Shown one piece after another: positions 740 to 21,550 of a stretch of 64,000 nucleotides of DNA. The notes under the pieces were generated by a model that saw only the letters and a list, made by a program, of their open reading frames with translations, did not search any database and was not told the origin of the DNA. The position numbers and the translations under genes are program-made. Source of the stretch: Acutalibacteraceae bacterium (GTDB lineage: Bacteria > Bacillota > Clostridia > Oscillospirales > Acutalibacteraceae). Where the stretch lies: positions 2,870 through 66,869 of the forward strand of contig CAVBYX010000045.1 of assembly GCA_963599905.1 (NCBI GenBank). Direction: 5' to 3'. The first letter of the stretch is position 1; each line of letters begins with the position of its first letter.

Positions 740-745
740 ATCAAT

Positions 746-1666: not shown

Positions 1667-1679
1667 GGGGAATGCGGCT

Positions 1680-3650: not shown

Positions 3651-3694
3651 AAGCGATTTGCAGTAAAAAACTATTTTTATCAAGGAGAAAAATT

Positions 3695-7176: not shown

Positions 7177-7301
7177 AATTATGTCACCCTAGCTAAAAGT
7201 ATTGCTACAAATAAAAGCGTTAAAAGCGCTAAATCGATACAACATAATGCGTTTGATTTTTTCAAGAATATATCTGATATACTTGTTGCCGTGGCAACGA
7301 T

Positions 7302-7420
7302 ATGGCAACAAAAAATCGGATAGCGTATGCTTTACCGATAATACAAATAATGTAGGTACTCTCTGCTAAATCTCATAAACAAATGCGTTTAAGATTGATT
7401 TACAGGGAGCGAGTGGGAAT
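7302..7420 (+). repeat. Direct repeat copy 1 (119 nt), candidate att/element-end sequence
   Basis: Aligns colinearly without gaps to 18840-18958 with 8 mismatches by eye. Both copies are preceded by a TGGCAAC-containing sequence and end in GGGAGCGAGTGGGAAT. Confidence 0.85.
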
Positions 7421-7568
7421 AATACCAAGAGTGCTGTAAACCCGCATAAGCACTGGGTTTTAGGCTCTTAAATTCCCGATTTGATAGCAAAATGATAGCA
7501 AACTGAAAAATGACTTTATTCTAAGTGTTCTATCGGTTTGCAGGTACAATTATCTTAATACTATAAAA

Positions 7569-7605
7569 GGCATTACTGACTTTTGCAGTCGGTAATGCCT
7601 TTTTT
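7569..7605. terminator. Bidirectional rho-independent terminator downstream of the XRE gene
   Basis: 13-bp stem GGCATTACTGACT / AGTCGGTAATGCC (one G-U pair), 5-nt loop. T6 run on the + strand and TTTTAT on the - strand. Confidence 0.6.
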
Positions 7606-7627
7606 GTGTCTTCTATTATGTTCCGTT

Positions 7628-8092
7628 TTACTTACGAGAATTAAAAGCTACGCTTTCGGGGTAGTTATATCTCCAGTTATCGTATTCCTCTTTTGTGATT
7701 TCTCCGTTCTTAAACTTTTCGGCTTGTTCCTGCCAAGCGGAAAACATATCAAACATTTTAAGATAGTTTGTTCCCATACCCTTATCAAGGCGTATGCAAA
7801 GCTCATCATCAAGTTTATCAATACGGAAACCGTATAAATCCTCAAGAGTAAACAGCGTGTGCATTAAGCCGTTGTAGCTGTCAATGTCGGGCACAGTTAA
7901 AGCACTTGTTGATACGCCAAACACATTTGCAAGATTGTTTGTTAAATCAGCCTTAGGCGTTCTTGATCCTGATTCATACTGTGCCATACGAATGTCAGCG
8001 GTTTTCTCCGGAAAGCCCACCTGCATACCGAGATATTTTTGAGTCATACCTTTTAAATTTCTGAAAAATCTTATTCTTTCTCCGATAGCCAT
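7628..8092 (-). CDS. XRE-family HTH transcriptional regulator (element repressor candidate)
   Basis: N-terminal IGERIRFFRNLKGMTQKYLGMQVG HTH. Divergent from the xis-int module. Confidence 0.85.
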   Translation of the reverse strand: MAIGERIRFFRNLKGMTQKYLGMQVGFPEKTADIRMAQYESGSRTPKADLTNNLANVFGVSTSALTVPDIDSYNGLMHTLFTLEDLYGFRIDKLDDELCIRLDKGMGTNYLKMFDMFSAWQEQAEKFKNGEITKEEYDNWRYNYPESVAFNSRK

Positions 8093-8122
8093 AATATAGC
8101 CCCTCTCATTTTACTGTTAAAT

Positions 8123-8152
8123 ATCATAGCATAACAAGTTAAGTGATGTCAA
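8123..8152 (-). promoter_or_regulatory. Sigma-A-type promoter for the XRE gene
   Basis: On the minus strand: TTGACA, 18-nt spacer, TATGAT. GAGGG Shine-Dalgarno before the ATG at 8092. Confidence 0.45.
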
Positions 8153-8194
8153 GACACATAAAGCAAAAAAGTTTAATATTTTTATGAAAACCAC

Positions 8195-8223
8195 TTGACA
8201 TAACGGAATATGCTTAGTATAAT
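8195..8223 (+). promoter_or_regulatory. Sigma-A-type promoter for the xis-int-mob operon
   Basis: TTGACA (8195-8200), 17-nt spacer, TATAAT (8218-8223). Confidence 0.55.
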
Positions 8224-8373
8224 TATTAAGCAAATAGCGTTAAGTCATTTGCCAAAATTGAATATCCGTCATATATCACGGTAATGGTGTATCCGCTCGG
8301 GCAAATCGGAATGCGGTCAGAAAGTATCCGACACTAAATAATTATAAAAATATAAAACGAAAGGATGATGTTA

Positions 8374-8571
8374 ATGTCAAATAAAATGTTTATGCGTGTT
8401 GAAGATGTAGCAGAAGAAATGGGCGTTTCCGTTTCTTACGCCTACAAACTCATACGCAAATTAAATAAAGAATTGCAGTCAACCGGGTGTATTACAATCC
8501 CCGGCAGAATTGACCGTAAATTCTTTCACGAAAAATTTTACTCAACAAAAACAATTGAAAGGAGCGATTAA
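8374..8571 (+). CDS. Excisionase-like / HTH_17-type DNA-binding protein
   Basis: MRVEDVAEEMGVSVSYAYKLIRKL HTH. Lies immediately upstream of the integrase. The ATG at 8374 is preferred over 8365 on AAGGA spacing. Confidence 0.6.
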   Translation: MSNKMFMRVEDVAEEMGVSVSYAYKLIRKLNKELQSTGCITIPGRIDRKFFHEKFYSTKTIERSD

Positions 8572-8572
8572 A

Positions 8573-9652
8573 ATGGGAGCATTCAAAAATGAAAAGAACG
8601 GAACTTGGTATGTGCAGTTCCGTTATACAGATTGGCAAGGCTTGCGACAGCAAAAATTAAAGCGTGGCTTTGCCACCAAACGAGAGGCACAGGAGTGGGA
8701 ACGAGCATTTCTGACCGAAAAGAAAGCTGACGTCACTATGCCATTTAAGACTTTTACGGAATTGTACGAAAAAGATGTGCGACCGAAGTTAAAGGAAAAC
8801 ACTTGGCTTACCAAAGAACATATTATTAAAACTAAAATATTGCCGTATTTTGAGCATAAGCGATTATGCGATATATCGGCAAAAGATGTTATTGCTTGGC
8901 AAAACGAGATTAGAAAGCAGACAAATTCAAGCGGTGAGCCGCTTTCCCAGGGGTATTTAAAGACGATTCACAATCAGTTGAGTGCATTGTTTAATCATGC
9001 AATCAAGATTTACGGATTAAGATTAAATCCCGCCTCTACGGTCGGAAATATGGGTAAAGAGGAACGCAAAGAGATGAATTATTGGACTGTGGAGGAGTAC
9101 AGCAAGTTCTCCGATGAAATGATGGACAAACCTATTTCATATTATGCGTTTCAAATGCTTTATTGGACAGGTATTCGTGTAGGCGAGTTACTTGCATTAA
9201 CTGCCGGCGATTTTGATTTTAAGAGCGGCACAGTTACAATCAATAAATCATACCAAAGGCTGCACCGAGAAGATGTTGTTACTCCACCGAAAACGGAGAA
9301 AAGCAATCGAACAATAAAAATGCCTCAGTTTTTATGTGATGAAATGCAAGAGTATTTGAAAATGTTTTATTCACCGAATGACGGCGACAGAATATTCCCT
9401 GTTTCAAAAAGCTATCTTCATCACGAAATGGACAGGGGCTCAAAAGCCGCAGGTGTAAAACGTATTCGTATTCACGATTTGAGGCATTCGCATGTTTCAC
9501 TTTTAATAAACCAAGGCTACCAAGCCGCCGCTATTGCTGACAGGGTCGGTCACGAAACCGTAGAAATTACCGACAGATATACACACATATATCCGTCAAA
9601 ACAAAATGAAATGGCAAATACACTTGATGAATTATGGAAGGAGAGAAAGTAA
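8573..9652 (+). CDS. int: Tyrosine site-specific recombinase / integrase
   Basis: N-terminal GTWYVQFRY SAM-like domain. C-terminal catalytic boxes TGIRVGELLAL, HDLRHSHVSLL, GHETVEITDRYTH. GGAG RBS before the ATG at 8573; the ORF-track start at 8510 was rejected. Confidence 0.9.
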   Translation: MGAFKNEKNGTWYVQFRYTDWQGLRQQKLKRGFATKREAQEWERAFLTEKKADVTMPFKTFTELYEKDVRPKLKENTWLTKEHIIKTKILPYFEHKRLCDISAKDVIAWQNEIRKQTNSSGEPLSQGYLKTIHNQLSALFNHAIKIYGLRLNPASTVGNMGKEERKEMNYWTVEEYSKFSDEMMDKPISYYAFQMLYWTGIRVGELLALTAGDFDFKSGTVTINKSYQRLHREDVVTPPKTEKSNRTIKMPQFLCDEMQEYLKMFYSPNDGDRIFPVSKSYLHHEMDRGSKAAGVKRIRIHDLRHSHVSLLINQGYQAAAIADRVGHETVEITDRYTHIYPSKQNEMANTLDELWKERK

Positions 9653-9653
9653 T

Positions 9654-9980
9654 ATGTCACTGAAAAACAGAGATGAACACAACCGTTGGAGAAATAAGAC
9701 TGTGGCTTTTAGAGTTTCGCCTGAGGAATGGGAACAAATTGAACGCTATGTTCAGCTTTCGGGTCTAACAAAACAAGACTATATCACAAGGCGACTTACT
9801 GTCAAAGATGTTGTTGTGCAAGGCAATCCGAGAGTATATAAGGCTTTGCGTAATAATCTTGCAGATGTACTTATTGAATTGCAAAGAATTGAGAACGGCG
9901 GTGCAGTCAATGACGAATTGCTTGACTTAATTGGAATGATAGCCGATATTCTCGGCGGATTAAAGGAGGTGTCAGAATGA
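9654..9980 (+). CDS. MobC-like ribbon-helix-helix relaxosome accessory protein
   Basis: VAFRVSPEEWEQIERYVQLSGLTKQDYITRRL matches the MobC-type RHH pattern. AGGAG RBS before the ATG at 9654. Confidence 0.55.
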   Translation: MSLKNRDEHNRWRNKTVAFRVSPEEWEQIERYVQLSGLTKQDYITRRLTVKDVVVQGNPRVYKALRNNLADVLIELQRIENGGAVNDELLDLIGMIADILGGLKEVSE

Positions 9981-10123
9981 CAGAAAAAGAAAAGACCGCT
10001 CCGGTTGTATCTGTTGGCGCAGATACGGAGCAGTCAATCCTAAAACATATCGATAACAGTATAACCGAATTTAAAAACAAAATCAAGGCTTATGGCAGAA
10101 ACGGAGGTGATTGCGGTGGCTGA
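9977..10123 (+). CDS. Small hypothetical protein (48 aa), translationally coupled
   Basis: Its ATG overlaps the MobC-like stop (ATGA). Strong AGGAGG 7 nt upstream. Below the ORF-track length cut-off. Translated by hand as MTEKEKTAPVVSVGADTEQS...GGDCGG. Confidence 0.4.
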   Translation: MTEKEKTAPVVSVGADTEQSILKHIDNSITEFKNKIKAYGRNGGDCGG

Positions 10124-11069
10124 ACTTAAAATTATAAGCATGGACGAAGTTGAACCCACCGAGGTTAAATGGCTTTGGTATCCGTATATTCCGTTTGGAA
10201 AAATAACCATTGTTCATGGCGACCCGGGCGATGGAAAAACTATGATGATTTTGCAGTTGGCTTCGCTTTTATCACGAGGAGAAAAACTTCCGTGCGATGA
10301 TACGGAGCGTGAGCCGATAAAAATAATTTATCAAACAGCCGAGGACGGATTGAGCGACACAATCAAGCCTCGCTTGCTTGCAGGCAATGCGGACTGTTCG
10401 CAAATAAAAGTAATTGACGAGTCTGAAGCCGCTCTTTCGCTTCTTGATGAAAGAGTGGAGCAAGCGATAATTGAAACAGGCGCAAAGGTAATAATCCTTG
10501 ACCCTGTTCAGGCATATATCGGCGCCAAGGTTGATATGAATAAAGCTAACGAAGTCCGAAGTGTTTTGGCACGGCTTGGACGACTTGCGGAGCAATACGG
10601 TTGTGCCGTAATTCTTGTAGGACACTTGAATAAAGCAAAGGGCAACAAGGCAAATTATCGTGGGCTTGGCTCGATAGATTTTCAGGCAGCCGCAAGGAGC
10701 GTGCTTGTTGTCGGAAGATTAAAGGACAAGCAAAACATTCGAGTGATGGCGCATGAAAAATCTTCGCTTGCCCCCGAGGGCGAGCCGATTGCGTTTGAGC
10801 TTGATAAAGAAAACGGATTTGCTTGGAAAGGTCATTACGATATTTCTATTGACGATTTGCTCAACGGATTCTCAAAAGAAACAAAAACGCAACAGGCGGA
10901 AAATTTAATAAAAGATTGTTTGTCGGATGGTAAGCAGGCTAATAAAGTTATCTCGAAAAAAGCCGAGAACATCGGCATATCAAAACGAGTGCTTGATGAA
11001 GCGAAAAAATCTCTCGGCGTAATATCTACCAAGGCAAACAATCAATGGTATTGGCAACTGCCCGGCTAA
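10092..11069 (+). CDS. RecA-fold ATPase (AAA_25 / RepA-like)
   Basis: VKWLWYPYIPFGKITIVHGDPGDGKT Walker A; Walker B VIILDPV. Start uncertain: ATG 10092, or GTG 10116 behind GGAGG. Confidence 0.7.
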   Translation: MAETEVIAVAELKIISMDEVEPTEVKWLWYPYIPFGKITIVHGDPGDGKTMMILQLASLLSRGEKLPCDDTEREPIKIIYQTAEDGLSDTIKPRLLAGNADCSQIKVIDESEAALSLLDERVEQAIIETGAKVIILDPVQAYIGAKVDMNKANEVRSVLARLGRLAEQYGCAVILVGHLNKAKGNKANYRGLGSIDFQAAARSVLVVGRLKDKQNIRVMAHEKSSLAPEGEPIAFELDKENGFAWKGHYDISIDDLLNGFSKETKTQQAENLIKDCLSDGKQANKVISKKAENIGISKRVLDEAKKSLGVISTKANNQWYWQLPG

Positions 11070-11078
11070 GCGACCAAG

Positions 11079-11279
11079 GTTGCAACATTGCAAAGGTATG
11101 GGAGAACTGCAATGTTGCAATCTTCCTTTTCGGCAGGTAGTAACAATAGCGAAAAGTTTAGACAGGGTGTAGGGTGTCCTTTACAAAGGACAGCCCTACC
11201 GCAAAACCTGTTTGCAGGTTGCATTTTTGATGGGCTTGCCTGTCAAAAGTGCTTTTGCGTTACTCTTGACAAGAGTAAC
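11079..11279 (+). promoter_or_regulatory. Candidate oriT / regulatory region (cluster of inverted repeats)
   Basis: Four inverted repeats lie directly upstream of the MobV relaxase. IR 11080-11092/11108-11120 (13 bp). IR 11169-11199 (14-bp arms, 1 mismatch). IR 11205-11220 (6 bp). Palindrome GTTACTCTTG-A-CAAGAGTAAC at 11259-11279. Confidence 0.4.
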
Positions 11280-11322
11280 AGAACCGAGGACGGTCAAATT
11301 TATTAGATTGGAGGTATAACTT

Positions 11323-12483
11323 ATGCAACGAACGATAAGTGCAATGGTGGGTAAAGGCTCAGTAAATCATAACAGCCGCAAGTTCAAAGCAGAAAATATT
11401 GATGGCAGCAGAACGCACCTGAACATAGATTACTGCAACGAGCCGATAAAGGAAATCTATCACGAATTGTTTGACGAAGCATTAAAAAGATACAACGAAA
11501 AGCAGACACGAGCCGACCGCCGAATAGAAAATTACTATGAGAAAATCAGAAATTCCAAGCAGGAAAAGCCCTTTCACGAATTGATTTTGCAGATTGGCGA
11601 TAAGGAAAATATGAGTGCCGAAAGCGAAAACGGACAGCTTGCAAGACAGATTTTAGATGAGTATTACCGTAGTTTTCAAGAGAGAAATTCTAACCTAAAA
11701 GTGTTCTCCGCCCATCTGCATATGGACGAGGCAACGCTCCATTTGCACATTGATTTTGTTCCGTTCACCACCGGAAGTAAGCGTGGACTTGATACGAGAG
11801 TAAGCCTGAAACAAGCGTTAGCCGCACAAGGTTTCAAAGGCGGAACTCGTGGCGATACTGAGTGGAATCAATGGGTAGGCGCAGAAAAATCAGCACTTGC
11901 ATTTGTAATGGAATGCCACGGAGTTGAGTGGGAACATAAAGGTACGCACGAAAAACATCTGTCTGTTCTTGATTATAAAAAGCAAGAGCGTGAAAAGGAA
12001 CTTGATATTTTGGAAGATAAACTTGCCGAGAAAAAAGATGAGTTTCGTGTTATGGCTGACCGCATTGAAAACTTTGACAATGGCGAAAGAGCACTGCAAA
12101 ATCTTGATGAAAGCATAATGAATGAGCCTGAATATCAGATGCCTGAACCGCCAGCAATGATGTCGGCGAGAACATATAAGGCAAAGTTCGCAGAACCGCT
12201 TGTGGCTCGATTCAAGTCGCTAATCAGCACCTTATTTGCACGATATTTCAAGGCGGTGGACAGCTACCACAGGTTAAACATTACAAACGGCAATCTCTAT
12301 CGTGAGAACGAAATATTGTCGAAAATCAACAGCAAGCTGAAAAGCGAAAACGAAAATCTGCGCTCGGAGGTCAAAGACTACAAACTCTTGCGTAAGGTTT
12401 TCGGAAATAAACAAATTGATAATTTGCTTGAACAGGCAAGAAATATCAAAGGTCATAAGCGTGAAAATCCACGCTCAAGATAA
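11323..12483 (+). CDS. MobV-family (Mob_Pre) relaxase
   Basis: HxDE..xHxH metal motif as HLHMDEATLHLHIDFVP. N-terminal VNHNSR segment. Coiled-coil C-terminus. Confidence 0.8.
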   Translation: MQRTISAMVGKGSVNHNSRKFKAENIDGSRTHLNIDYCNEPIKEIYHELFDEALKRYNEKQTRADRRIENYYEKIRNSKQEKPFHELILQIGDKENMSAESENGQLARQILDEYYRSFQERNSNLKVFSAHLHMDEATLHLHIDFVPFTTGSKRGLDTRVSLKQALAAQGFKGGTRGDTEWNQWVGAEKSALAFVMECHGVEWEHKGTHEKHLSVLDYKKQEREKELDILEDKLAEKKDEFRVMADRIENFDNGERALQNLDESIMNEPEYQMPEPPAMMSARTYKAKFAEPLVARFKSLISTLFARYFKAVDSYHRLNITNGNLYRENEILSKINSKLKSENENLRSEVKDYKLLRKVFGNKQIDNLLEQARNIKGHKRENPRSR

Positions 12484-12507
12484 ATAAATTTTTGGAGGTA
12501 AAACAAA

Positions 12508-12876
12508 ATGGTAAACACAATTTTTGAAAAAGCAGGCGGTACTTATACGCAGGCGGGCGACTATATGTTGCCGGATTTATTATCGGCGGAAGAAGCAAAT
12601 ATCGGCGTTTGGGCAATGCGACACAAACGATATTTGAAGCAGAATCATAAAGTGCTTTACTACAATTTGCTGACAAGCGGTAAACTCAATTCATATCTTG
12701 CAGATATTGAACAACAAGCAAGTAATATGTTTTCTCGGCTGGTAAATGACTTAGCCGAAAAAGAAAATGCAACCGAAGGACTCAAAGCAATCGATATGAT
12801 GTTGTGGGTGCGGAGAATAAATAATATTCAGAATAGGGCGACGGAAATTGTAAATGTAGATTTAATCTACGCATAA
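12508..12876 (+). CDS. TnpV-like protein
   Basis: 122 aa. GGTYTQAGDYMLPDL ... YLADIEQQA ... NRATEIV pattern recalled from Tn4451 TnpV-type proteins. Confidence 0.55.
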   Translation: MVNTIFEKAGGTYTQAGDYMLPDLLSAEEANIGVWAMRHKRYLKQNHKVLYYNLLTSGKLNSYLADIEQQASNMFSRLVNDLAEKENATEGLKAIDMMLWVRRINNIQNRATEIVNVDLIYA

Positions 12877-13068
12877 AAAATTGCGCCGAGTGTGGCTCTG
12901 AAAATGAGTTATGCTCGGCGATTTCCCTTTGTTTTGATTACGAATAACTAAGTGTTGTTATCTGTATTTAATTCCATTTTCGTGCAATTTGTTCTTGCTT
13001 TTCTTAAGTAAAAGTGATATACTAAACGAGTATAAGAACTTATTTATTTGTGTTTTATGAGGTGTAGT

Positions 13069-13293
13069 ATGGCTGTTAGTTACAATAAGTTATGGAAACT
13101 TCTAATTGATAAAAATATGAAAAAGAAAGAACTTGGAGAAGCCGCTGGTATAAGCAATTCTCTAATCGCAAAGCTTGGTAAAAATGAAAATGTTACAGTT
13201 GAAGTATTGGTAAGAATCTGTACTGCTCTTGATTGTCAAATAGATGATATTGTAGAGTTAATTCCCGATTCAGAACAAGTTGTGAAAGGTTAA
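13069..13293 (+). CDS. XRE/Cro-type HTH protein, possible R-M controller (C) protein
   Basis: KKKELGEAAGISNSLIAKLGKNENVTVEVLVRICTAL HTH. Ends 11 nt upstream of the MTase. GAGGTG RBS before the ATG at 13069. Confidence 0.65.
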   Translation: MAVSYNKLWKLLIDKNMKKKELGEAAGISNSLIAKLGKNENVTVEVLVRICTALDCQIDDIVELIPDSEQVVKG

Positions 13294-13304
13294 GGTAAAT
13301 AACG

Positions 13305-15890
13305 ATGAAAATGAACAAACCAACTTACATCAGCTTGTTTAGTAGTGCAGGTGTAGGTTGTTACGGATTTAAATTAGAAGATTTTGATTGTGTTGCAACA
13401 AACGAACTAATTACAAGAAGATTAGATATTCAGAGATATAATCACAAATGCAAATATGAAAGCGGATACATCTGCGGAGATATTACCGACAATTCCATTA
13501 AGGATATTTTGTATTCGCAGATTAATTTATGGAAGAAAAAAGAAAATGTATCAAGAATTGATGTTATAGTTGCAACCCCTCCTTGTCAGGGAATGTCCGT
13601 TGCAAACCATAAAAAAAGCACAAATGAAATTGTGCGAAATTCTTTAGTAATTGAATCAATAAAAATCATAAAGCAGGTTAACCCTCGATTTTTCATTTTT
13701 GAAAATGTTGCCGCTTTTATGAAAACAATATGCACTGATATAGACGGAGAAAACAAAACAATTGCTGCTGCTATTGAAAGCGATTTGGGACAAAATTACT
13801 CTTATACTTCTCGTATTATAAACTTCAAGAATTACGGAGCTTGCTCCAGCAGACAAAGAACTGTTGTCATCGGCGTTTCTAAGGATTATGCTGATGAGGT
13901 ATCTCCTTTAGAATTATATCCTGACCTTGTTGAAGAACGCACACTGAGAGAAGTTATAGGCAATTTAAAGCCGTTAAAAGAATTCGGCGAAATTGACAAA
14001 GATGATATTTATCATTCATTTAGGACATATCCCGAACATATGAGAGCGTGGATTTCTGATATAAAAGAGGGCGAATCTGCGTTTGATAATGTTGACGATA
14101 GCAAAAAACCTCATAGAATTGTTGAGGGTAAAATTGTAATCAATCAGCAAAAAAACGGTGATAAATACAAAAGACAATTTTGGGACAAAGTCGGTCCTTG
14201 TATACACACAAGGAATGACCAAATGGCAAGTCAGAATACTGTTCATCCAAGCGATGACAGAGTGTTCAGCATAAGAGAACTTATGCTTATGATGACAGTC
14301 CCGCACTCTTTCAAATGGGTTGAAACAGATTTCTCAGATTTAAATGCTCTTTCGTTTGAGAAAAAACGAATGTTTTTAAAAAAAGAAGAAATCAAAATCA
14401 GACAATCATTAGGAGAAGCTGTACCTACTGTTATTTTCCAATCAATAGCGAGAAAAATAAAAGGGGCGTTAAAGCATACGCCTCTCAATACAGCAATGAT
14501 TAACAAATTGGTGTTATCTAATAAATTGAGTGATATTGATGCTTTAAAAAAATTCATTTCGGCTAATCCTATGAATTTATCATCTGCAACATTAGGACAT
14601 ATTGCAGAATTAGCAAATACCAACAGAACAGATAATGCAGCTTTTTTCACAAGCAAAACGCTGATTACTGAAATGATGAAAGCACTGCCTGATACTGACA
14701 AAGAAACAGTCAGAATCCTTGAACCATCTGTCGGAGTCGGTAACTTCATACCGCTAATCATTAAAAAATTCGAGGGTAAAAACATTATTCTTGATGTAGT
14801 AGACATTGATAAGCATAGTTTAGAACTTGCAAAGCTGATTTTAAAGAATTACAACATTCCAAATAACTGCACTATCAATTTTATCAATGCAGACTTTTTG
14901 CTGTACAATTTTTCGGAAAAGTATGACTACATAATTGGCAATCCGCCTTTTTATAAAATGAAAGCAAGCAATTCTCTTTTGAATATTTACCGTAAAAATG
15001 CAGTTAATACTGCAACAACAAATATTTGTTCTTTCTTTTTGGACAAAGCAGTTCGCATAGGGAATTATGTTGCATTGGTATTTCCTAAATTTTTGCTTAA
15101 CACACCTGAGTTTTCGCAAACAAGAAAATACTTATCCGACAAAGCGGTAGAATGTATTATCGATTTTGGCGAGAAAGGTTTTCCAGGTGTGCTTGTAGAA
15201 ACATTGGCGATTTTCATTAACAATTTGAGTCGTCCTTCAAATACTCGCATTGCTTCAATCACTCGCGGAAAATTCATGATACAGTCACAGAAATATATTT
15301 TTGATGACAAACTGCCGTATTGGATTATTTACCGTGACAATGAATTCGACTCTGTGTGTAAGAAACTCGATTTTAATGTTTTTAAAGTATTCAGAGATAG
15401 GCAAATAACTAACAAAATGCTCTCTTCAAGTGGAGATATTCGTGTGCTAAAATCTCGAAACATTAGCGATGACGGAAAAAATGTAATGGATATTGACGGG
15501 TATGATTCATACATCTCATATTATGATGCCAAGAGTTTATCGGTTTACAGTTATTTAGACTGTGATAATGTATATCTTACACCTAATATGACATACAAAC
15601 CTCGTATGATTGAAAAACCGAAAGAGTGCCTTGTAAATGGTTCTTTAGCAGTTTTAATTCCTAAAAAAGGGATAATTCCAACCAAGGAGCAATTGGCATT
15701 TTTCTCAACGCAAGAATATCGAAATTTTTATCAAATCGCAAGAAATTTTCAAACAAGATCATTAAATGTTGATGCTTGTTCGGTATTCTTCTATGGGTTA
15801 TTGAGAGATAAAACGAAAAAAGCTCCTATAACCGAAAAACTTGATGAAAATGAAAATATTCAAATTACAATTTTTGATTATATGAAATGA
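13305..15890 (+). CDS. Bifunctional DNA methyltransferase: N-terminal C5-cytosine MTase fused to C-terminal gamma-class N6-adenine MTase
   Basis: m5C motifs: I LFSSAGVG, IV PPCQGMS, VI FIFENV, VIII SSRQRTVVIG, IX FSIRELMLMMTVP, X GEAVPTV. m6A motifs: ILEPSVGVGNF (SAM binding) and IIGNPPFYK (NPPF catalytic). Confidence 0.85.
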   Translation: MKMNKPTYISLFSSAGVGCYGFKLEDFDCVATNELITRRLDIQRYNHKCKYESGYICGDITDNSIKDILYSQINLWKKKENVSRIDVIVATPPCQGMSVANHKKSTNEIVRNSLVIESIKIIKQVNPRFFIFENVAAFMKTICTDIDGENKTIAAAIESDLGQNYSYTSRIINFKNYGACSSRQRTVVIGVSKDYADEVSPLELYPDLVEERTLREVIGNLKPLKEFGEIDKDDIYHSFRTYPEHMRAWISDIKEGESAFDNVDDSKKPHRIVEGKIVINQQKNGDKYKRQFWDKVGPCIHTRNDQMASQNTVHPSDDRVFSIRELMLMMTVPHSFKWVETDFSDLNALSFEKKRMFLKKEEIKIRQSLGEAVPTVIFQSIARKIKGALKHTPLNTAMINKLVLSNKLSDIDALKKFISANPMNLSSATLGHIAELANTNRTDNAAFFTSKTLITEMMKALPDTDKETVRILEPSVGVGNFIPLIIKKFEGKNIILDVVDIDKHSLELAKLILKNYNIPNNCTINFINADFLLYNFSEKYDYIIGNPPFYKMKASNSLLNIYRKNAVNTATTNICSFFLDKAVRIGNYVALVFPKFLLNTPEFSQTRKYLSDKAVECIIDFGEKGFPGVLVETLAIFINNLSRPSNTRIASITRGKFMIQSQKYIFDDKLPYWIIYRDNEFDSVCKKLDFNVFKVFRDRQITNKMLSSSGDIRVLKSRNISDDGKNVMDIDGYDSYISYYDAKSLSVYSYLDCDNVYLTPNMTYKPRMIEKPKECLVNGSLAVLIPKKGIIPTKEQLAFFSTQEYRNFYQIARNFQTRSLNVDACSVFFYGLLRDKTKKAPITEKLDENENIQITIFDYMK

Positions 15891-15899
15891 GGATTTGTT

Positions 15900-17132
15900 A
15901 TGTTAACACAGCAAGATATTATAGATTTTTGTAATCAGCGCAATTATGATATACGGGAAAGTCATAACGGCAGATGGATTGACCAAAAGTGCACACCAGA
16001 TGTTATTTGGTCGATATCTGACTTTGTATTAGATTATGTTGATACCGTCAACGAGCGTTTTACTGTTAAAGATATTTGGCAAAGTGAATACGCAAAGCAA
16101 ACAATAGCCGAAACATATTCCAAACCGGGTACTGATGAAAGAACTGCGGAAAACGAATATGATAAGGTCTTTTCACAACCGCTTAATATGCTCTGTTATG
16201 CGGGCATACTCAAAGATGTTTCAGAAACCTCGAGGCATTTATATATTGTTGAAAATAGAGAGGTTCTTGAATATATTGCCCGAAATGATGTATATGCACT
16301 GCGGTTTTTACAGTGCTATATTGAAAAAGTGCTAACAGATAGTGGACTTATTGATGTTTTCAACGACTTCTTTGAAAATCAAGACTCTGCACACTTCAAT
16401 GCTATGAAACAAGCTTTTATTGATTTCTATCATACCTATACTCCAGTAAAAAAGGATTACGAACCGAAACGAATATTTACAAAGGTAGTAAATCCTCTTG
16501 CTTTCAGCAGAGATAAGTTAGGCTCTGAAAAAGGTCGAATGTCAAAGCATAAAGTAAATCGTTCTGATATGATGTATAATCAAGACAATTTTAGAGATGT
16601 TTATCGTGATAAGCCGAAAGATGTAACAAGGCAAGAATGGCTTGCTACTCATCCTGATATTGATAGAAGAGACGGATATTTCGAACAGATGATGTCCCGC
16701 TCCAAGAGACTGTTACGTGATTTCACAAATCAATATAGAGAGAATATTTCTGAATTGACTATGTTTGTTGATGGTCAGGATGATAATACTGCTCCGACAC
16801 AGTCGCACCATATTTTCCCTAAAAATGAATTTCCTGAAATTATGCATTATATAGAAAATTTAATAATGTTAACACCGAATCAGCATTATGGATATGCTCA
16901 CCCTAATAACAACACTCATATAATTGATTTAGCAGCTCAAAAAGTTTTACTAATTGCAAAGACATATAGTATTCGTCAAAATCTAACAAGTGAGGTTGAA
17001 GAACATATTTTTGAGTTCTGCAAATTCTTACAGGTGTTAAGTGTAGGTTGGGATGATGAAAGTGTTTTAGAAATTGCGGAGAATGACTACAATGATATAA
17101 TTCACGCCATAAATTATCATTATGTAGCGTAG
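15900..17132 (+). CDS. HNH-motif nuclease, probable restriction endonuclease partner
   Basis: Starts 9 nt after the MTase. C-terminal TQSHHIFPKNEFPEIMHYIENLIMLTPNQHYGYAH fits a beta-beta-alpha-Me (H-N-H) site. Confidence 0.6.
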   Translation: MLTQQDIIDFCNQRNYDIRESHNGRWIDQKCTPDVIWSISDFVLDYVDTVNERFTVKDIWQSEYAKQTIAETYSKPGTDERTAENEYDKVFSQPLNMLCYAGILKDVSETSRHLYIVENREVLEYIARNDVYALRFLQCYIEKVLTDSGLIDVFNDFFENQDSAHFNAMKQAFIDFYHTYTPVKKDYEPKRIFTKVVNPLAFSRDKLGSEKGRMSKHKVNRSDMMYNQDNFRDVYRDKPKDVTRQEWLATHPDIDRRDGYFEQMMSRSKRLLRDFTNQYRENISELTMFVDGQDDNTAPTQSHHIFPKNEFPEIMHYIENLIMLTPNQHYGYAHPNNNTHIIDLAAQKVLLIAKTYSIRQNLTSEVEEHIFEFCKFLQVLSVGWDDESVLEIAENDYNDIIHAINYHYVA

Positions 17133-17247
17133 AGGGAGATGTTTAATGTTGATTTTTGACTTTTACCATTAGCGAGTTTTTGAATTAATTAATAGACCAT
17201 ATTATCGAAATGCTTATGGTATAAAACAAGTTTAAAGGAGAATTTAT

Positions 17248-17856
17248 ATGAGTAAACAAGTATATATTAGTGCTGACTATGATCAACATAATGGTGACCA
17301 AGATGTTGTTAATGAATTGAATAAATGGGGAAGCGATAATCTTCATAAAGTTGAATTTATTGATATGTCCAAGGTGTCGTCTGGCAGTGTTGCTAATGGC
17401 TATGATTGTCGCATTTGTGATTTAAAGTCTGAATTCAATCGCCAAATTAACGCATCTTCTGCGGTCATTTTTGTGGTAGGAGACATGACTGCTTATCGCA
17501 CAGCAGGAAGCGGATGCGAACGTATGTCCAAAGAAAAGTGGCAATGCTCCTGCACACCATATAAACAAAACACTAATGGTGCTAAAATATGTAAAGTGTC
17601 CACTGTTTCTACTCCTGGGGATAATGACGATTATGGTAATATAAACTCTCATTCTTATCTTCGGCACGAATTTGAACAGGCAAAAAAGAAGAAAAAATCA
17701 ATTATTATTGTATATAATTCAACGAGAAAAGAATCAGATTGGTTGCCTTCATACATGAGAGATTATCAAAACGACGCAAGGCCTTTTTGGAAAATTGATG
17801 CCAATGGAAGAAAGATTGGAGATTATACATATATAAAAGAGGCACTTGGATTTTGA
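17248..17856 (+). CDS. TIR-like domain protein (ThsB-like) with Cys-rich insertion
   Basis: KQVYISADYDQH N-terminal strand, AVIFVVGDMTAYR and SYLRHEFEQAKKKKKSIIIVY parallel ThsB/DUF1863-type TIR-like proteins (candidate catalytic Glu141). Six Cys residues at positions 54, 57, 90, 100, 102 and 115. Confidence 0.65.
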   Translation: MSKQVYISADYDQHNGDQDVVNELNKWGSDNLHKVEFIDMSKVSSGSVANGYDCRICDLKSEFNRQINASSAVIFVVGDMTAYRTAGSGCERMSKEKWQCSCTPYKQNTNGAKICKVSTVSTPGDNDDYGNINSHSYLRHEFEQAKKKKKSIIIVYNSTRKESDWLPSYMRDYQNDARPFWKIDANGRKIGDYTYIKEALGF

Positions 17857-18713
17857 AAAAATTTATAACAAAGAGTAGTGGTTGGGCATTCGCCATTACT
17901 ACAGGAATTTTTGCTTTTGTTCCAGAGCCCTTTTTTGGGCAAAAAGAGTGGTTAACCCAAAAGTTTGTTGCACAATGCAAATTTTTATCCACTATAGATG
18001 TCTATAATACAAACATTGCGATTTCTCGTTTAATTAGTTTTTTTGTTGTCTTGATAATAACATCCTTTTTATATGCTGTTTTTCTAAAAGCACGCACACG
18101 AATTACTATAAAAGGACAGAATTATTGTATTTGTGTTGAGTACGGGGATATATTAAAAAAGAAAAAATGCAAACGAGTAATCAACTTTGATGAATGTTTT
18201 TCAACCAAGGTTGGTAACTCAACAGCAGATATAAATCCCAATTCAATATGCGGGCAATATTTGATATTGAATCCAAATTTAAATATGCAAGGATTAATTG
18301 AATCCGCTCAAATTAGCCCTGCTCAGAGTAAATCGAAATACCAGCATAAAGTGCGATATGATTCTGGTACTGTAATTCCCAATGGTAATGATTTGTTGAT
18401 GGCTTTTGCAAAATTGGATGAAAAAGGTAAAGGCAGATTCTTTTCACGTGATGAATATCTTAAGTGCTTAGATTTGTTGTGGAGAGAGATAGAGAATTAC
18501 TATTCTGAAATGGATGTATGTGTGCCAATATTAGGGGCTGGAACAACATCATTTGATGGCGGAGCTGGTGCTTCAATTTCACAGCAAGATTTGCTTGACA
18601 TGATGATTTGGTCATATAAGTTAAGTTCTCATAAAATAAAAGCTCCACATAAATTGTGTATCGTCTGTAAAAGGAATACAAACTTTTCACTAAACAGCAT
18701 AGACAAATCATAA
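17853..18713 (+). CDS. Two-TM membrane protein with C-terminal Macro-like domain (type II ThsA-like)
   Basis: Its TTG start overlaps the upstream stop (TTGA). Hydrophobic segments WAFAITTGIFAFV and LISFFVVLIITSFLYAVFL. Macro-like VEYGDIL...RVINFDECFS and VPILGAGTTSF. Confidence 0.55.
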   Translation: MKKFITKSSGWAFAITTGIFAFVPEPFFGQKEWLTQKFVAQCKFLSTIDVYNTNIAISRLISFFVVLIITSFLYAVFLKARTRITIKGQNYCICVEYGDILKKKKCKRVINFDECFSTKVGNSTADINPNSICGQYLILNPNLNMQGLIESAQISPAQSKSKYQHKVRYDSGTVIPNGNDLLMAFAKLDEKGKGRFFSRDEYLKCLDLLWREIENYYSEMDVCVPILGAGTTSFDGGAGASISQQDLLDMMIWSYKLSSHKIKAPHKLCIVCKRNTNFSLNSIDKS

Positions 18714-18839
18714 CGATTTCCTAACAAAGTATATTTAAATAATAGATCTATTATCAATTTCTGAGTTTATTTGCCAATATTCTTTAAAAGAATGCTATTT
18801 GTCAATTGTTTGTTTTTTAATATCGGCTATGGCAACAAA

Positions 18840-18958
18840 ATGGCAACAAAAAATCGGATAGCGTATGCTTTACCGATAATTCAAATAATATAGATACTCT
18901 TTGTTAAATCTCATAAACAAAAGTGTTTAAGATTGATTTACGGGGAGCGAGTGGGAAT
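18840..18958 (+). repeat. Direct repeat copy 2 (119 nt), candidate att/element-end sequence
   Basis: Aligns to 7302-7420 with 8 mismatches. Preceded by a tandem ATGGCAACAAAA motif. Confidence 0.85.
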
Positions 18959-19047
18959 GACGGATTAAAATGCCGAAAGCCTGCATTTATGCGGGTTTCC
19001 GGTATTTGTTTTATCAAATGGCTCTATTTGTTGGCGGAGTAATGGAA

Positions 19048-19363
19048 GGAGATAAAATGTGGAAAAGTAATAAAATTGCAATATTATATTCTGTGATTAC
19101 TTTATTTGCAACTTTTATCTTAGGGCAAATATTATTAATTTTATATCCTGATGGTAATACAACTGGCTCATCAGTATTGTTATTTTGATGAATCTGATTC
19201 CAATGATTGTTGCTATATTTTTTCTAAATATGAGAAAAGAAAAAATGTATTAAAGGACATGTTTTTACATCGTGAAAAATTGACACCATATCTTTTAGCA
19301 ATTGGTAGTGTTATTTTATACTATACCGTTTCCATAATATTAAGAAATATAGCCAGATCCTAA
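19048..19363 (+). pseudogene. Disrupted membrane-protein gene remnants (possibly the N-terminal part of a CPBP-type protease)
   Basis: Hydrophobic reading frames are broken over three frames: MWKSNKIAILYSVITLFATFILGQ...; MNLIPMIVAIFFLNMRKEK; KDMFLHREKLTPYLLAIGSVILYY. No intact gene. Confidence 0.3.
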
Positions 19364-19534
19364 TTTTTTATTCTTTGAAATTCGACGTCTTTGACTCCTG
19401 TTTTGTTATGTTTTTTTACCCTCAATCAATTCACTGCATTTTTCTTTTTTAGACTTGACTTTTAATAGTTAGTCTTTCTGTGATGCACCTATTGTAAACC
19501 TACAAAATTTCAAAATAAAATTTTAATTTAACTA

Positions 19535-19563
19535 TTGAAAATTTCTTCTAAGTGTTGTATAAT
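19535..19563 (+). promoter_or_regulatory. Sigma-A-type promoter of tRNA-Thr
   Basis: TTGAAA (19535-19540), 17-nt spacer, TATAAT (19558-19563). The tRNA starts 24 nt downstream. Confidence 0.55.
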
Positions 19564-19587
19564 TAATTTAGTTTTGGTTTAATATTC

Positions 19588-19663
19588 GCTGAAGTGGCGC
19601 AGTTGGTAGCGCAACTGATTCGTAATCAGTAGGTCGTGGGTTCAAGTCCCATCTTCAGCTCCA
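19588..19663 (+). tRNA. tRNA-Thr (anticodon CGU), CCA encoded
   Basis: Cloverleaf folded by hand. Acceptor GCTGAAG/CTTCAGC, D arm GCGC-AGTTGGTA-GCGC, anticodon arm ACTGA-TTCGTAA-TCAGT, T arm with GGTTCAAGTCC, discriminator T then CCA. Confidence 0.9.
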
Positions 19664-19669
19664 AATCAG

Positions 19670-19715
19670 AATCCGCATTATTAAGCTGTTTTAGTTTTTA
19701 ATGCGGATTTTTTTA
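19670..19715 (+). terminator. Rho-independent terminator after tRNA-Thr
   Basis: 11-bp stem AATCCGCATTA / TAATGCGGATT followed by a T-run. Confidence 0.8.
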
Positions 19716-19729
19716 ATTTCAAAAATATA

Positions 19730-19790
19730 TTGACAAAAAATATAAATTTGCATATAATATTCATATCATTTAACCGAATGGTTAAATGAT
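19730..19790 (+). promoter_or_regulatory. Promoter plus perfect palindromic operator upstream of the ArsR/SdpR-like gene
   Basis: TTGACA (19730-19735), 17-nt spacer, TATAAT (19753-19758). Then ATCATTTAACC-GAAT-GGTTAAATGAT (19765-19790), a perfect 11-bp inverted repeat. Confidence 0.6.
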
Positions 19791-19807
19791 ATGTGGAGGT
19801 AATTTAA

Positions 19808-20071
19808 TTGGGTTTACAAGAAACGATGAAAGCACTTTCAGATGAAACTCGGCGGGAAATCATTCAGTTGTTAAAGAAAACAGAAATGACAGCAGGTGAC
19901 ATTTCAAAACATTTTAAAATATCAAATGCAGCTATATCAAAACATTTGTCAATATTGAAAAATGCCGATTTAATACGAGATAGGAGAGAGGGAAAATTTA
20001 TAATTTATGAGCTTAACACTTCGGTTCTTGAGGATGTGTTATTGTGGATTTCTGAACTTAAAGGAGAATAA
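19808..20071 (+). CDS. ArsR-family transcriptional repressor, SdpR-like
   Basis: LSDETRREIIQLLKKTEMTAGDISKHFKISNAAISKHLSILKNADLI winged HTH. TTG start behind GGAGGT. Confidence 0.85.
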   Translation: MGLQETMKALSDETRREIIQLLKKTEMTAGDISKHFKISNAAISKHLSILKNADLIRDRREGKFIIYELNTSVLEDVLLWISELKGE

Positions 20072-20073
20072 TT

Positions 20074-20727
20074 ATGAAATTAAAATATTATCTTATAAAC
20101 GCATTTATGTTTCTGACTTTGGTTTATACAATTATATTTATGATGATTTCGCCTGATTCCATACCTATGCATTATAATATGCTGGGTGAAATTGACAGAT
20201 ATGGCAACAAGCTTGAAATGATTATATTTCTGTTCTTCGTGTACATTTGCGGTATAATTTCTTTGCTTTTTGCTAAGTATTTTAAATCAAAGAGCGAAAA
20301 ATCATCTGAGAAATTATCACTAAATGTGGGTATTATTTTAGTTTTAACGTTTATCGTATTGTATTTAATTTTTTCTGTTATGGCTTTAAATCCAAATATA
20401 AGATACGGAACTGATATTGGTAATGTTGTTCTAATTGTAATAGGAATATTTTTTACAGTGTTATGCAATTTGATGCCAAAAACAAGATTAAATTCTTTGT
20501 TCGGAATTCGCACCTGTTGGAGTATTGCAAATGAAAAAATATGGCAAAAGTCTCAGCGTTTTGGCGGATACTCCGGAGTTATATGCGGAATAATTCTCGT
20601 TATTTCAGGTTTTGTTTTCTCTTTTGAAATCAGTATAATAATCACAATATTATCAGTTACTCTTTGGGCTGTTTTGTCTTCTGTTATGTCCTATATATTT
20701 TATAAAATATATGAAAAAAATAATTAA
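20074..20727 (+). CDS. SdpI/YhfL-family membrane protein (DUF1648 + SdpI domains)
   Basis: IPMHYNMLGEIDRYGNK and FGIRTCWSIANEKIWQKSQRFGG signatures. Polytopic. Confidence 0.8.
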   Translation: MKLKYYLINAFMFLTLVYTIIFMMISPDSIPMHYNMLGEIDRYGNKLEMIIFLFFVYICGIISLLFAKYFKSKSEKSSEKLSLNVGIILVLTFIVLYLIFSVMALNPNIRYGTDIGNVVLIVIGIFFTVLCNLMPKTRLNSLFGIRTCWSIANEKIWQKSQRFGGYSGVICGIILVISGFVFSFEISIIITILSVTLWAVLSSVMSYIFYKIYEKNN

Positions 20728-20846
20728 TTTGACTTTGTTCTTATTTTGTGTTATATTACAAATAAACTGCCACCGGGTAGAAAATGCAAAAGCATTCGTC
20801 TGCACATCGTTAGGTCTTTGAAGATGTGTAAACGGATGCTTTTTTT
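20728..20846 (+). promoter_or_regulatory. Promoter and structured leader with intrinsic terminator upstream of the pnuC-like gene (attenuator / possible riboswitch)
   Basis: TTGACT, 17-nt spacer, TATATT with upstream TG. 17-bp terminator stem 20792-20808 / 20823-20839 (1 mismatch, 2 G-U pairs) plus a T7 run ending 11 nt before the ATG. A competing small hairpin AAUGC-AAAA-GCAUU is possible. Confidence 0.5.
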
Positions 20847-20857
20847 GTGAGGATATT

Positions 20858-21550
20858 ATGAAAATAATTAAAGCAATTACAGACTATTTTTCAAAATTTG
20901 AGGTTACGCTGTGGCTTACTTCCGTTACGATAATCGCATCATCATTTGTAATTTTTGACCGAGTAAATTACATAACACTTGTTTCTTCGATAATAGGTGT
21001 AACTTCACTGATTTTAAACGCCAAAGGAAATCCTTTCGGACAGGTTTTAATGATAATTTTTGGTGTTCTTTACGGTATAATTTCCTTTTCGTATTTATAT
21101 TACGGTGAAATGATAACTTATCTCGGAATGACTGTACCAATGGCGTTCGTCGCTCTCGTTTCATGGCTTAAAAATCCTTATAACGATAAACGATCAGAGG
21201 TAAAAATCAATCATATTTCTTATAAGGAATTAATATTTATGGCTGTTCTAACGCTTATTGTAACAATTGTATTTTACTGTATTCTCAAATTCTTTAACAC
21301 AGCTAATCTTATACCAAGCACAATTTCGGTTACAACAAGTTTTTCGGCGGTATATTTAACGTTCAGACGAAGTCCGTATTTTGCAATCGCATATGCATTA
21401 AACGATATTGTTTTAATTGTTCTGTGGTCACTTGCATCAATTTATGATATTTCGTACGTATCTGTAATAATTTGTTTTTTCGTTTTTTTGGTAAACGATA
21501 TTTACGGTTTTATAAATTGGCTCAAAATAGGGCAAAGGCAATCGTCATAA
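20858..21550 (+). CDS. pnuC: PnuC-family nicotinamide riboside / vitamin transporter
   Basis: Seven or eight TM segments, LNAKGNPFGQ and C-terminal NDIYGFINW signature. Confidence 0.7.
   Translation: MKIIKAITDYFSKFEVTLWLTSVTIIASSFVIFDRVNYITLVSSIIGVTSLILNAKGNPFGQVLMIIFGVLYGIISFSYLYYGEMITYLGMTVPMAFVALVSWLKNPYNDKRSEVKINHISYKELIFMAVLTLIVTIVFYCILKFFNTANLIPSTISVTTSFSAVYLTFRRSPYFAIAYALNDIVLIVLWSLASIYDISYVSVIICFFVFLVNDIYGFINWLKIGQRQSS

Follow-up and report, generated by a model that had tools for sequence, protein, structure and literature searches.

A probable type II Thoeris gene pair forming the terminal cargo of an integrative mobilizable element in an Acutalibacteraceae bacterium

Introduction

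What is encoded by two overlapping genes that lie at the right end of a mobile element and that, where source records name them at all, which few do, appear as 'hypothetical protein'? The genes, thsB and thsA, are found on contig CAVBYX010000045.1 of an Acutalibacteraceae bacterium (Bacillota, Clostridia; GenBank assembly GCA_963599905.1), within a stretch of 64,000 nucleotides (positions 2,870 to 66,869 of the contig) that is hereafter called the window. A preliminary description of the locus had proposed that a TIR-like protein and a protein with two transmembrane (TM) helices and a Macro domain form a type II Thoeris-like system, and that the two proteins are divergent and small and may represent an uncharacterised variant. 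Here we report that the pair is very probably a type II Thoeris system for defence against phage, whose general mechanism would be that of its characterised relatives, and that its sensor belongs to a sub-family already catalogued by Shi et al. (2024). Published type II Thoeris experiments concern systems of Bacillus, E. coli and Pseudomonas, and the signal published for B. amyloliquefaciens type II Thoeris is a histidine-ADP-ribose conjugate (His-ADPR).

Results

Identity of the two proteins

Both open reading frames exist where they had first been placed (17248-17856 and 17853-18713; Table 1), and the motifs that had been quoted as their signatures are all present: KQVYISADYD (amino acids 3-12), AVIFVVGD (72-79) and RHEFEQA (139-145, with E141) in ThsB, and GDIL (98-101), VINFDECFS (109-117) and VPILGAGTTSF (224-234) in ThsA. 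The 202-residue ThsB is matched by Pfam family PF08937 (ThsB_TIR) at 28.7 bits, above the gathering cut-off of 21.2 bits, over amino acids 13-85 only. The PADLOC ThsB model PDLC00432 matches it over its full length (4e-116) and a second PADLOC ThsB model covers amino acids 4-200 at 3.5e-16. A Foldseek search with an AlphaFold2 (AF2) model of ThsB (pLDDT 71.8, pTM 0.73) returned as neighbours the SARM1 TIR domain, a B. cereus TIR, the ThsB of the Tad3 complex, nucleoside deoxyribosyltransferases (NDTs), the DUF1863 protein 3hyn and EcThsB2 of E. coli, with the TIR matches ranking above the NDT matches; the Pfam scan of ThsB gave no NDT match. The assignment of ThsB to the ThsB/DUF1863 TIR-like proteins is therefore upheld by the Pfam and PADLOC profiles, and the fold search agrees with it through weak matches only. 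No hydrophobic segment was found in ThsB by Kyte-Doolittle analysis, and no NCBIfam model matches either ThsB or ThsA.

The 286-residue ThsA is matched by Pfam family PF20016 (ThsA_Macro) at 9.8e-44 over profile positions 1-183 of 183, and end to end by the PADLOC ThsA model PDLC00411 (2e-127). Amongst solved structures it matches ThsA Macro domains only, namely those of E. coli (8v6q/8v6r), P. corrugata (8v6s) and B. amyloliquefaciens (8r66) and 9uuz, the sequence of which is near-identical to that of 8r66; the E-value was 2e-20 with the single sequence and ranged from 7.5e-27 (8v6q, the best match) to 8e-22 with the family profile. These matches bear out the Macro-like C-terminus. Pfam and PADLOC detected no SIR2 or SLOG domain in ThsA, for which only Macro-type ThsA models match, and since ThsA has neither domain the pair fails the definition of type I Thoeris. 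The N-terminal part of ThsA is predicted to span the membrane, probably with two helices. Helix 2 is strongly hydrophobic (Kyte-Doolittle 19-residue mean 2.67), AF2 places helices at amino acids 2-22, 25-29 and 50-81 (pLDDT 65-81), and the family-invariant residues of this part are F13, F20, P24, E25, F28 and W33.

The two genes overlap by 4 nt at the junction GGATTTTGAAAA, where the TTG start of thsA and the TGA stop of thsB share these nucleotides, as the preliminary description had noted. The TTG is the sole in-frame start within the first 60 codons of thsA, and thsA homologues start at the equivalent site with TTG (34), ATG (32) or GTG (4; n=70). The overlap measures 4 nt in 30 loci and 8 nt in 35 loci; because the genes overlap in 65 of the 70 related loci that could be delimited, translational coupling is a conserved feature of the pair. 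The sequence AAGAGG lies 12 nt upstream of the thsA TTG. Scanning the surroundings of thsB-thsA for promoters and terminators yielded no terminator and no convincing promoter.

Table 1 Features of the element that carries thsB and thsA and of its surroundings (positions in the window).
Feature	Coordinates	Strand	Remarks
Upstream defence block	17-7176		precedes the left copy of the repeat
Two Dam-like N6 methylases	17-739, 746-1666		
AlwI-family restriction endonuclease	1680-3650		
IetA AAA ATPase and IetS subtilase	3695-4660, 4660-7176		PADLOC 1e-67, 2e-45
Left copy of 129-nt direct repeat	7292-7420	+	directly upstream of the HTH and integrase genes of the element
HTH repressor	7628-8092	-	Pfam
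Tyrosine integrase (Phage_integrase)	8510-9652		Pfam
NikA-like protein	9606-9980		Pfam
AAA_25 ATPase	10092-11069		Pfam
Mob_Pre/MobV relaxase	11323-12483		Pfam
TnpV	12508-12876		Pfam
Type II restriction-modification (RM) module	13048-17132	+	cargo adjoining the Thoeris pair
Small HTH protein of RM module	13048-13293	+	HTH_26 annotation from identical locus L087
Fused C5/N6 methyltransferase, 861 aa	13305-15890	+	Pfam; PADLOC MTase_II 6e-277
Restriction endonuclease, 410 aa	15900-17132	+	PADLOC REase_II PDLC03488 1e-116
Shine-Dalgarno sequence AAGGAG	17235-17240	+	7 nt upstream of thsB ATG; read from sequence
thsB	17248-17856	+	ATG start, 202 aa; predicted TIR-like sensor and signal synthase
thsA	17853-18713	+	TTG start, 286 aa; effector; start overlaps thsB stop by 4 nt
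thsA N-terminal membrane part	17874-18092	+	helix 1 aa ~8-29, helix 2 aa ~55-80; Kyte-Doolittle
thsA Macro domain (aa 93-273)	18129-18671	+	Pfam limits; D99, C133-G134-Q135, A186, G228-A-G-T-T-S233 loop with GGA insertion
Right copy of 129-nt direct repeat	18830-18958	+	conserved right-terminal sequence of the element
tRNA-Thr(CGT)	19588-19663		630 nt right of the element end
ArsR-family regulator and SdpI-like membrane protein pair	19808-20727		after tRNA-Thr(CGT)
PnuC-type nicotinamide mononucleotide transporter	20858-21550		1.9 kb beyond the right end of the element

Conserved residues of ThsB

We counted residue conservation over 86 ThsB sequences. Y6, S8, C54, C57, C90, C102, C115 and H140 are invariant, and C100 (82/86), Y137 (85/86) and E141 (85/86) are nearly so. 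The segment Y137-L-R-H-E141 is a YxxxE counterpart of the WxxxE motif, the mutation of which abolishes an E. coli type II Thoeris system. E141 had been proposed as the candidate catalytic Glu and retains this candidacy because it occupies the YxxxE position and is kept in 85 of the 86 sequences, while E143, in the same helix motif, is variable. According to Shi et al. (2024) an active-site Tyr on strand beta-1 is a peculiarity of the ThsB proteins associated with TM-Macro effectors, and these authors relate the Tyr-Glu site to deoxyribosyl-transferases. The invariant Y6 sits at this beta-1 position. ThsB is a TIR-like protein whose Tyr-Glu active site places it in a class that is found with TM-Macro effectors only.

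Five invariant cysteines and a nearly invariant sixth (C54, C57, C90, C100, C102 and C115) lie in or around an insertion at amino acids ~80-135, which AF2 models with low confidence as three short strands. When relatives at 31-36% identity were aligned, C102 and C115 came out as invariant and matches to C57 and C90 were found in shifted alignment columns. Pfam searched with the Cys-rich insertion by itself gave no match even at an E-value of 10, the text and supplements of Shi et al. (2024) make no mention of the cysteines of sub-family 7 ThsB, and a literature search for zinc in ThsB returned nothing relevant. Judged from the cysteine pattern by itself, the insertion most readily suggests a structural zinc site, which is probably present.

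Ligand pocket of the ThsA Macro domain

The published ligand contacts of BaThsA (B. amyloliquefaciens) and EcThsA (E. coli) were mapped onto ThsA through profile alignments to 8v6q and 8r66, and their conservation was counted over 67 ThsA relatives. The Asp that contacts adenine N6 (BaThsA D100, EcThsA D83) is D99 here, with Asp in 51 and Asn in 16 of the 67 sequences; BaThsA Q135, which makes a water-mediated adenine contact, is again Q135 and invariant; and the G-x-G-x-T loop that holds the diphosphate is conserved as G228-A-G-T-T232. The Asn at the distal ribose O2' (BaThsA N133, EcThsA N114) is C133, an invariant Cys, the Ser at the distal ribose O3' (BaThsA S194, EcThsA S175) is A186, with Ala in 58/67, and the residue stacking on adenine (BaThsA Y277, EcThsA H259) is K273, a Lys or Arg throughout the relatives. 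Finally the Arg that contacts the histidine carboxylate (BaThsA R240, EcThsA R221) is S233, a position occupied by Arg in 39/67 and by Ser in 19/67. The Ser233 variant is restricted to a subclade with a three-residue GG(A/S) insertion just after it, and the window ThsA belongs to this subclade. Comparing the ThsB partners of Arg-type and Ser-type ThsA revealed no discriminating ThsB position. This argues that both types read the same molecule, and at the level of these alignments it weakens the idea of a different signal within the clade. The literature searched was not found to describe either the Cys cluster of ThsB or the altered distal Macro pocket.

Distribution and gene pairing

A word-index search returned 1786 ThsB relatives and 980 ThsA relatives. 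The best 120 of the 1786 are nearly all 202 amino acids long and 77-89% identical to the window ThsB, and the best 120 of the 980 are nearly all ~285 amino acids long and 67-98% identical to the window ThsA. Since the top relatives are nearly all of these lengths, 202 and 286 amino acids are the standard sizes of the family and the earlier view of the proteins as small was mistaken. When ThsB was run as a single sequence with HMMER against 1.84 billion cluster representatives, only 153 matches came back, mostly fragments, with a handful of full-length proteins at 34-61% identity. By these sequence comparisons the ThsB family forms a compact group that stands well apart from other TIR proteins. 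Neither single-sequence nor profile searches with ThsB against PDB sequences found a solved TIR or ThsB, a result to which we return below.

Scanning one genome per species identified 80 loci at 53-82% ThsB identity. Their hosts are mostly gut Clostridia, Negativicutes and Erysipelotrichia, and a few are assigned to Bacteroidota, Actinomycetota or Treponema. Sub-family 7 of Shi et al. (2024, Table S2) consists of seven Clostridia proteins, described from predicted structures only and with TM-Macro ThsA partners only. Through organism names in the genome scan we found that two of the genomes listed there, Lachnospiraceae bacterium COE1 (81% identity) and Eubacterium plexicaudatum ASF492 (65%), contain relatives of the window ThsB with the same downstream ThsA. 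Because these relatives are listed in sub-family 7, the window ThsB belongs to it, and nothing separates it from the other members. As expected for this sub-family, Y6 is invariant, and every intact partner that matches the window ThsA or was scanned combines a TM part with PF20016. The window ThsB is therefore a member of a catalogued, experimentally uncharacterised sub-family and not a new kind of ThsB. The label 'divergent' holds in part: the systems characterised in Bacillus, E. coli and Pseudomonas are remote from these proteins, yet the family is large, tightly conserved and has its own PADLOC models. In the same way 'uncharacterised variant' is right as regards experiments and wrong as regards recognition, the system being covered by both PADLOC and Shi et al. 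(2024).

A ThsA homologue of the window type lies directly downstream of thsB in ~70 of the 86 loci. Ten genome loci have no such match, and eight of these have a divergent neighbour of ~300 amino acids with N-terminal hydrophobic helices, located downstream of thsB in seven and upstream in one (L066); in a further locus, L046, the contig ends. The divergent effector of L062 matches PF20016 at 2e-41. In all, a PF20016-type TM-Macro gene adjoins thsB in each of the 80 genome loci examined, save where the contig ends, and one ThsB sensor family partners with at least three putative Macro pocket variants. The much more divergent TM and PF20016 effectors found with the same ThsB family in ~10 of the 80 genomes (L062, L044, L061, L063, L066, L067, L072, L074 and L086) display the motifs VIPTNTFF, SVQG and GSGRAAI. 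At L062 (1558-5501, Intestinimonas massiliensis) two extra TIR_2 genes lie upstream. A search of phage records gave no match and one of plasmid records a single match (C. beijerinckii, 65%); the pair is therefore not phage-borne in the collections searched.

The mobile element and its surroundings

The pair is the last cargo of an 11.5-kb integrative mobilizable element (IME) that encodes an integrase and a MobV relaxase (Table 1). As is characteristic of IMEs, the element has an integrase and a relaxase, is without conjugation genes and is found in different sites. Two copies of a 129-nt direct repeat, 92% identical to each other, were found, and 117 nt separate the end of thsA from the right copy, in agreement with the earlier statement that the pair sits directly inside the right-hand repeat. 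The similarity of the window to locus L089 stops at 18961 and that to the metagenomic contig L001 at 18956, that is, at the end of the right repeat, and the right end of the element was observed at 18956-18961 in three contexts. Because similarity stops at this point, the right boundary is established and the Thoeris pair is the last coding cargo. The loss of similarity of independent insertions at the same place likewise confirms its description as terminal cargo of the IME.

The left repeat copy probably has another origin. The 129-nt sequence is the conserved right terminus of this IME family, L001 carries it at its right end only (10978-11107), and the genes upstream of the left copy in the window are other defence genes and not guaA; for these reasons we consider the left copy to be probably the right end of a second, related element in tandem and probably not a classical attL. 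The tRNA gave the only Rfam match, and the 129-nt repeat does not correspond to a known RNA. The genes before the left copy form, together with the IME, a defence island, and they are probably the cargo of the tandem element, which would run off the window start.

ThsA is 98% identical in the metagenomic contigs L001-L006, and a related backbone with 83% DNA identity lies downstream of guaA in L001 and L003. The Thoeris genes and right end of L001 are 97% identical to those of the window, whereas its RM module differs (5881-9245) and consists of two C5 methylases, an endonuclease and a C protein. L089 has an identical pair and the same RM module with a different chromosomal flank. As judged from these comparisons, cargo is swapped in a modular fashion, the RM module being exchanged beside a fixed Thoeris block and right end. 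Across positions 8000-21000 the GC content varies: the IME backbone lies at ~0.40-0.44 (about 0.42 overall), the RM and Thoeris cargo at 0.33-0.35 and the right chromosomal flank at 0.29-0.30, a mosaic that suggests different origins of backbone, cargo and host. The set of integrase, NikA-like protein, AAA_25 ATPase, Mob_Pre relaxase and TnpV is the same as in Bacillota tyrosine-integrase/MobV IMEs, related copies of which lie downstream of guaA, and defence systems on IMEs and on integrative and conjugative elements are documented. The window differs from the guaA-linked IMEs in that its left repeat follows an AlwI-type RM system and IetAS, which suggests tandem accretion.

To the right of the element lie a tRNA-Thr(CGT) gene, in which the element does not end, a gene pair encoding an ArsR-family regulator and an SdpI-like membrane protein, and a gene for a PnuC-type transporter. 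The last of these is chromosomal, since it is absent from the L089 flank, and its proximity to an NAD+-consuming defence system is probably coincidental.

Discussion

The two genes are adjacent, co-oriented and inherited together, and the proposed combination of a TIR protein with a two-TM Macro protein, which defines the pair as type II Thoeris, is sustained by profile searches, by sequence matches to solved ThsA Macro domains and, weakly, by the fold of ThsB. Every testable feature of type II Thoeris was borne out except full conservation of the His-ADPR contacts. Several observations nevertheless weigh against our assignment and the mechanism that it implies. The Foldseek matches of the ThsB model have probabilities of 0.9-1.0 and TM-scores of 0.4-0.6 with weak E-values (1.4e-3 to 6e-2), and to this is added the failure of the PDB sequence searches mentioned above. 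The claim of two hydrophobic N-terminal helices in ThsA stands for the second helix, while the first, with a Kyte-Doolittle mean of 1.2, is amphipathic and below the usual threshold of 1.6; the first helix of EcThsA is likewise amphipathic (PMC11204291). The full AF2 model of ThsA, built from a 24-sequence alignment, was unusable (pLDDT 47, with the Macro domain below 50), and consequently the Macro pocket was compared by sequence alone. In this comparison four BaThsA contacts to the distal ribose, histidine and adenine of His-ADPR are altered (N133 to Cys, S194 to Ala, R240 to Ser and Y277 to Lys). 

By analogy with the characterised systems, phage infection would activate ThsB, which would use NAD+ in a base-exchange type reaction and yield a conjugate of ADP-ribose, the one made in B. 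amyloliquefaciens being His-ADPR. The conjugate would bind the Macro pocket of ThsA, and Macro dimers would then stack into open-ended membrane oligomers in which the TM helices are clustered. The clustered helices would damage the membrane, so that the phage cycle is cut short by the death or arrest of the infected cell. The Cys-rich insertion of ThsB, with its probable structural zinc, may sense phage or keep ThsB off in uninfected cells, and the gene overlap probably keeps the expression of sensor and effector coupled. The IME would disseminate the pair along with an RM module that can be exchanged.

The closest points of comparison are the systems with known structures. The B. amyloliquefaciens Y2 type II Thoeris (His-ADPR; 8r66) likewise has two genes, a TM and PF20016 ThsA and a Tyr-Glu ThsB, and its ThsA, like that of the window, keeps the Asp that binds adenine, Q135 and a Gly-rich loop for the phosphates. 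Between the two Macro domains similarity shows only at the profile level (E-value 3e-22), N133, S194, R240 and Y277 of the Y2 protein stand against C133, A186, S233 and K273, the window loop has three additional residues after T232 and the window ThsB carries the Cys-rich insertion. The TM-Macro ThsA proteins of E. coli CFT073 (8v6q/8v6r) and P. corrugata (8v6s) include the best solved Macro match (E. coli 8v6q), and EcThsA combines an amphipathic TM1 with a hydrophobic TM2 in the same way as the window ThsA, whereas its pocket residues N114, S175, S217, R221, H259 and K262 all differ. EcThsB2 (8v6t; Shi et al. 2024), a fold neighbour of the window ThsB, has the same Tyr-Glu site. In contrast to the single ThsB of the window, the E. 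coli CFT073 and P. corrugata systems have two ThsB genes, and EcThsB2 is a sub-family 9 protein with a C-terminal tail, unlike the window ThsB, a sub-family 7 member whose Cys-rich insertion is internal.

Because several side chains that contact His-ADPR differ, the identity of the signal is uncertain: it may differ from His-ADPR, although we lean slightly towards His-ADPR as the actual signal of the window pair. A reading that overlaps with ours, and that we regard as possible but not as probable, keeps the architecture and changes the messenger, which would be an ADP-ribose conjugate other than His-ADPR, for instance one built on a different base or amino acid or one whose distal ribose is modified, read by the altered Macro pocket. 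It draws on the replacement of the O2'-binding Asn of BaThsA and EcThsA by Cys in 67/67 ThsA partners, of the O3'-binding Ser by Ala in 58/67, of the stacking aromatic residue by Lys or Arg and, in the window subclade, of the histidine-carboxylate Arg by Ser beside a three-residue Gly-rich insertion. The products of TIR proteins are moreover known to differ between Thoeris types, and the ThsB Tyr-Glu site has been likened to deoxyribosyl-transferases (Shi et al. 2024), with NDTs amongst the fold neighbours. However the His-ADPR-producing BaThsB has a Tyr-Glu site too, BaThsA holds the histidine mainly by main-chain atoms, the Arg is kept in most ThsA proteins of the wider clade (39/67), the absence of a ThsB position separating Arg-type from Ser-type partners argues for one signal for both, and the pocket comparison is one of sequences. 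A bolder version, which we find doubtful, would make sub-family 7 a distinct signalling branch, in which a zinc-binding Cys cluster serves as phage sensor or as redox or metal switch and a conjugate other than His-ADPR is read by the invariant-Cys Macro pocket. The invariant Cys might then even contact the ligand covalently or through a metal.

Two further explanations question the function itself. The pair could serve the element and not the host: as a module for addiction or exclusion it would kill cells losing the IME or gaining a competitor, phage defence being secondary. This would suit its constant position at the extreme right end of the IME next to an RM module, a class known to act as addiction system, its better conservation between related elements (97%, against 83% for the backbone) and the reported toxicity of type II ThsB by itself. 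We judge it very unlikely, as every tested type II Thoeris is phage-triggered and otherwise silent, there is no antitoxin-like third gene and many genomes contain the same ThsB/ThsA family away from this IME. Even harder to credit is the proposal that ThsB is an NDT or a DNPH1-like hydrolase acting on (deoxy)nucleotides and that the Macro protein is an unrelated membrane-bound binder of ADP-ribose. NDT structures (2a0k, 9emx, 8pqq and 7o62) are indeed found by Foldseek, and a Tyr-Glu pair is the active-site arrangement of NDT and DNPH1, but the TIR matches outrank them, Pfam and PADLOC both assign ThsB, and a Bacillus homologue of the same active-site type makes His-ADPR. The strict translational coupling of thsB to the Macro gene in ~80 genomes also argues against a stand-alone role.

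Understood as type II Thoeris, genes labelled hypothetical can be recognised as a defence system, one that is found very commonly in gut Clostridia and commonly in gut Bacillota and is spread by small mobilizable islands, and the element that carries them here illustrates modular cargo exchange. The ThsB systems studied so far are of the sub-family 9 type only, and the clade of the window offers a compact natural variant. Its conserved sensor Cys cluster and re-tooled effector pocket are two testable features that make it a reasonable target for study, though not a surprising finding. The clade could show how far His-ADPR extends in type II Thoeris and how TIR sensors stay off.

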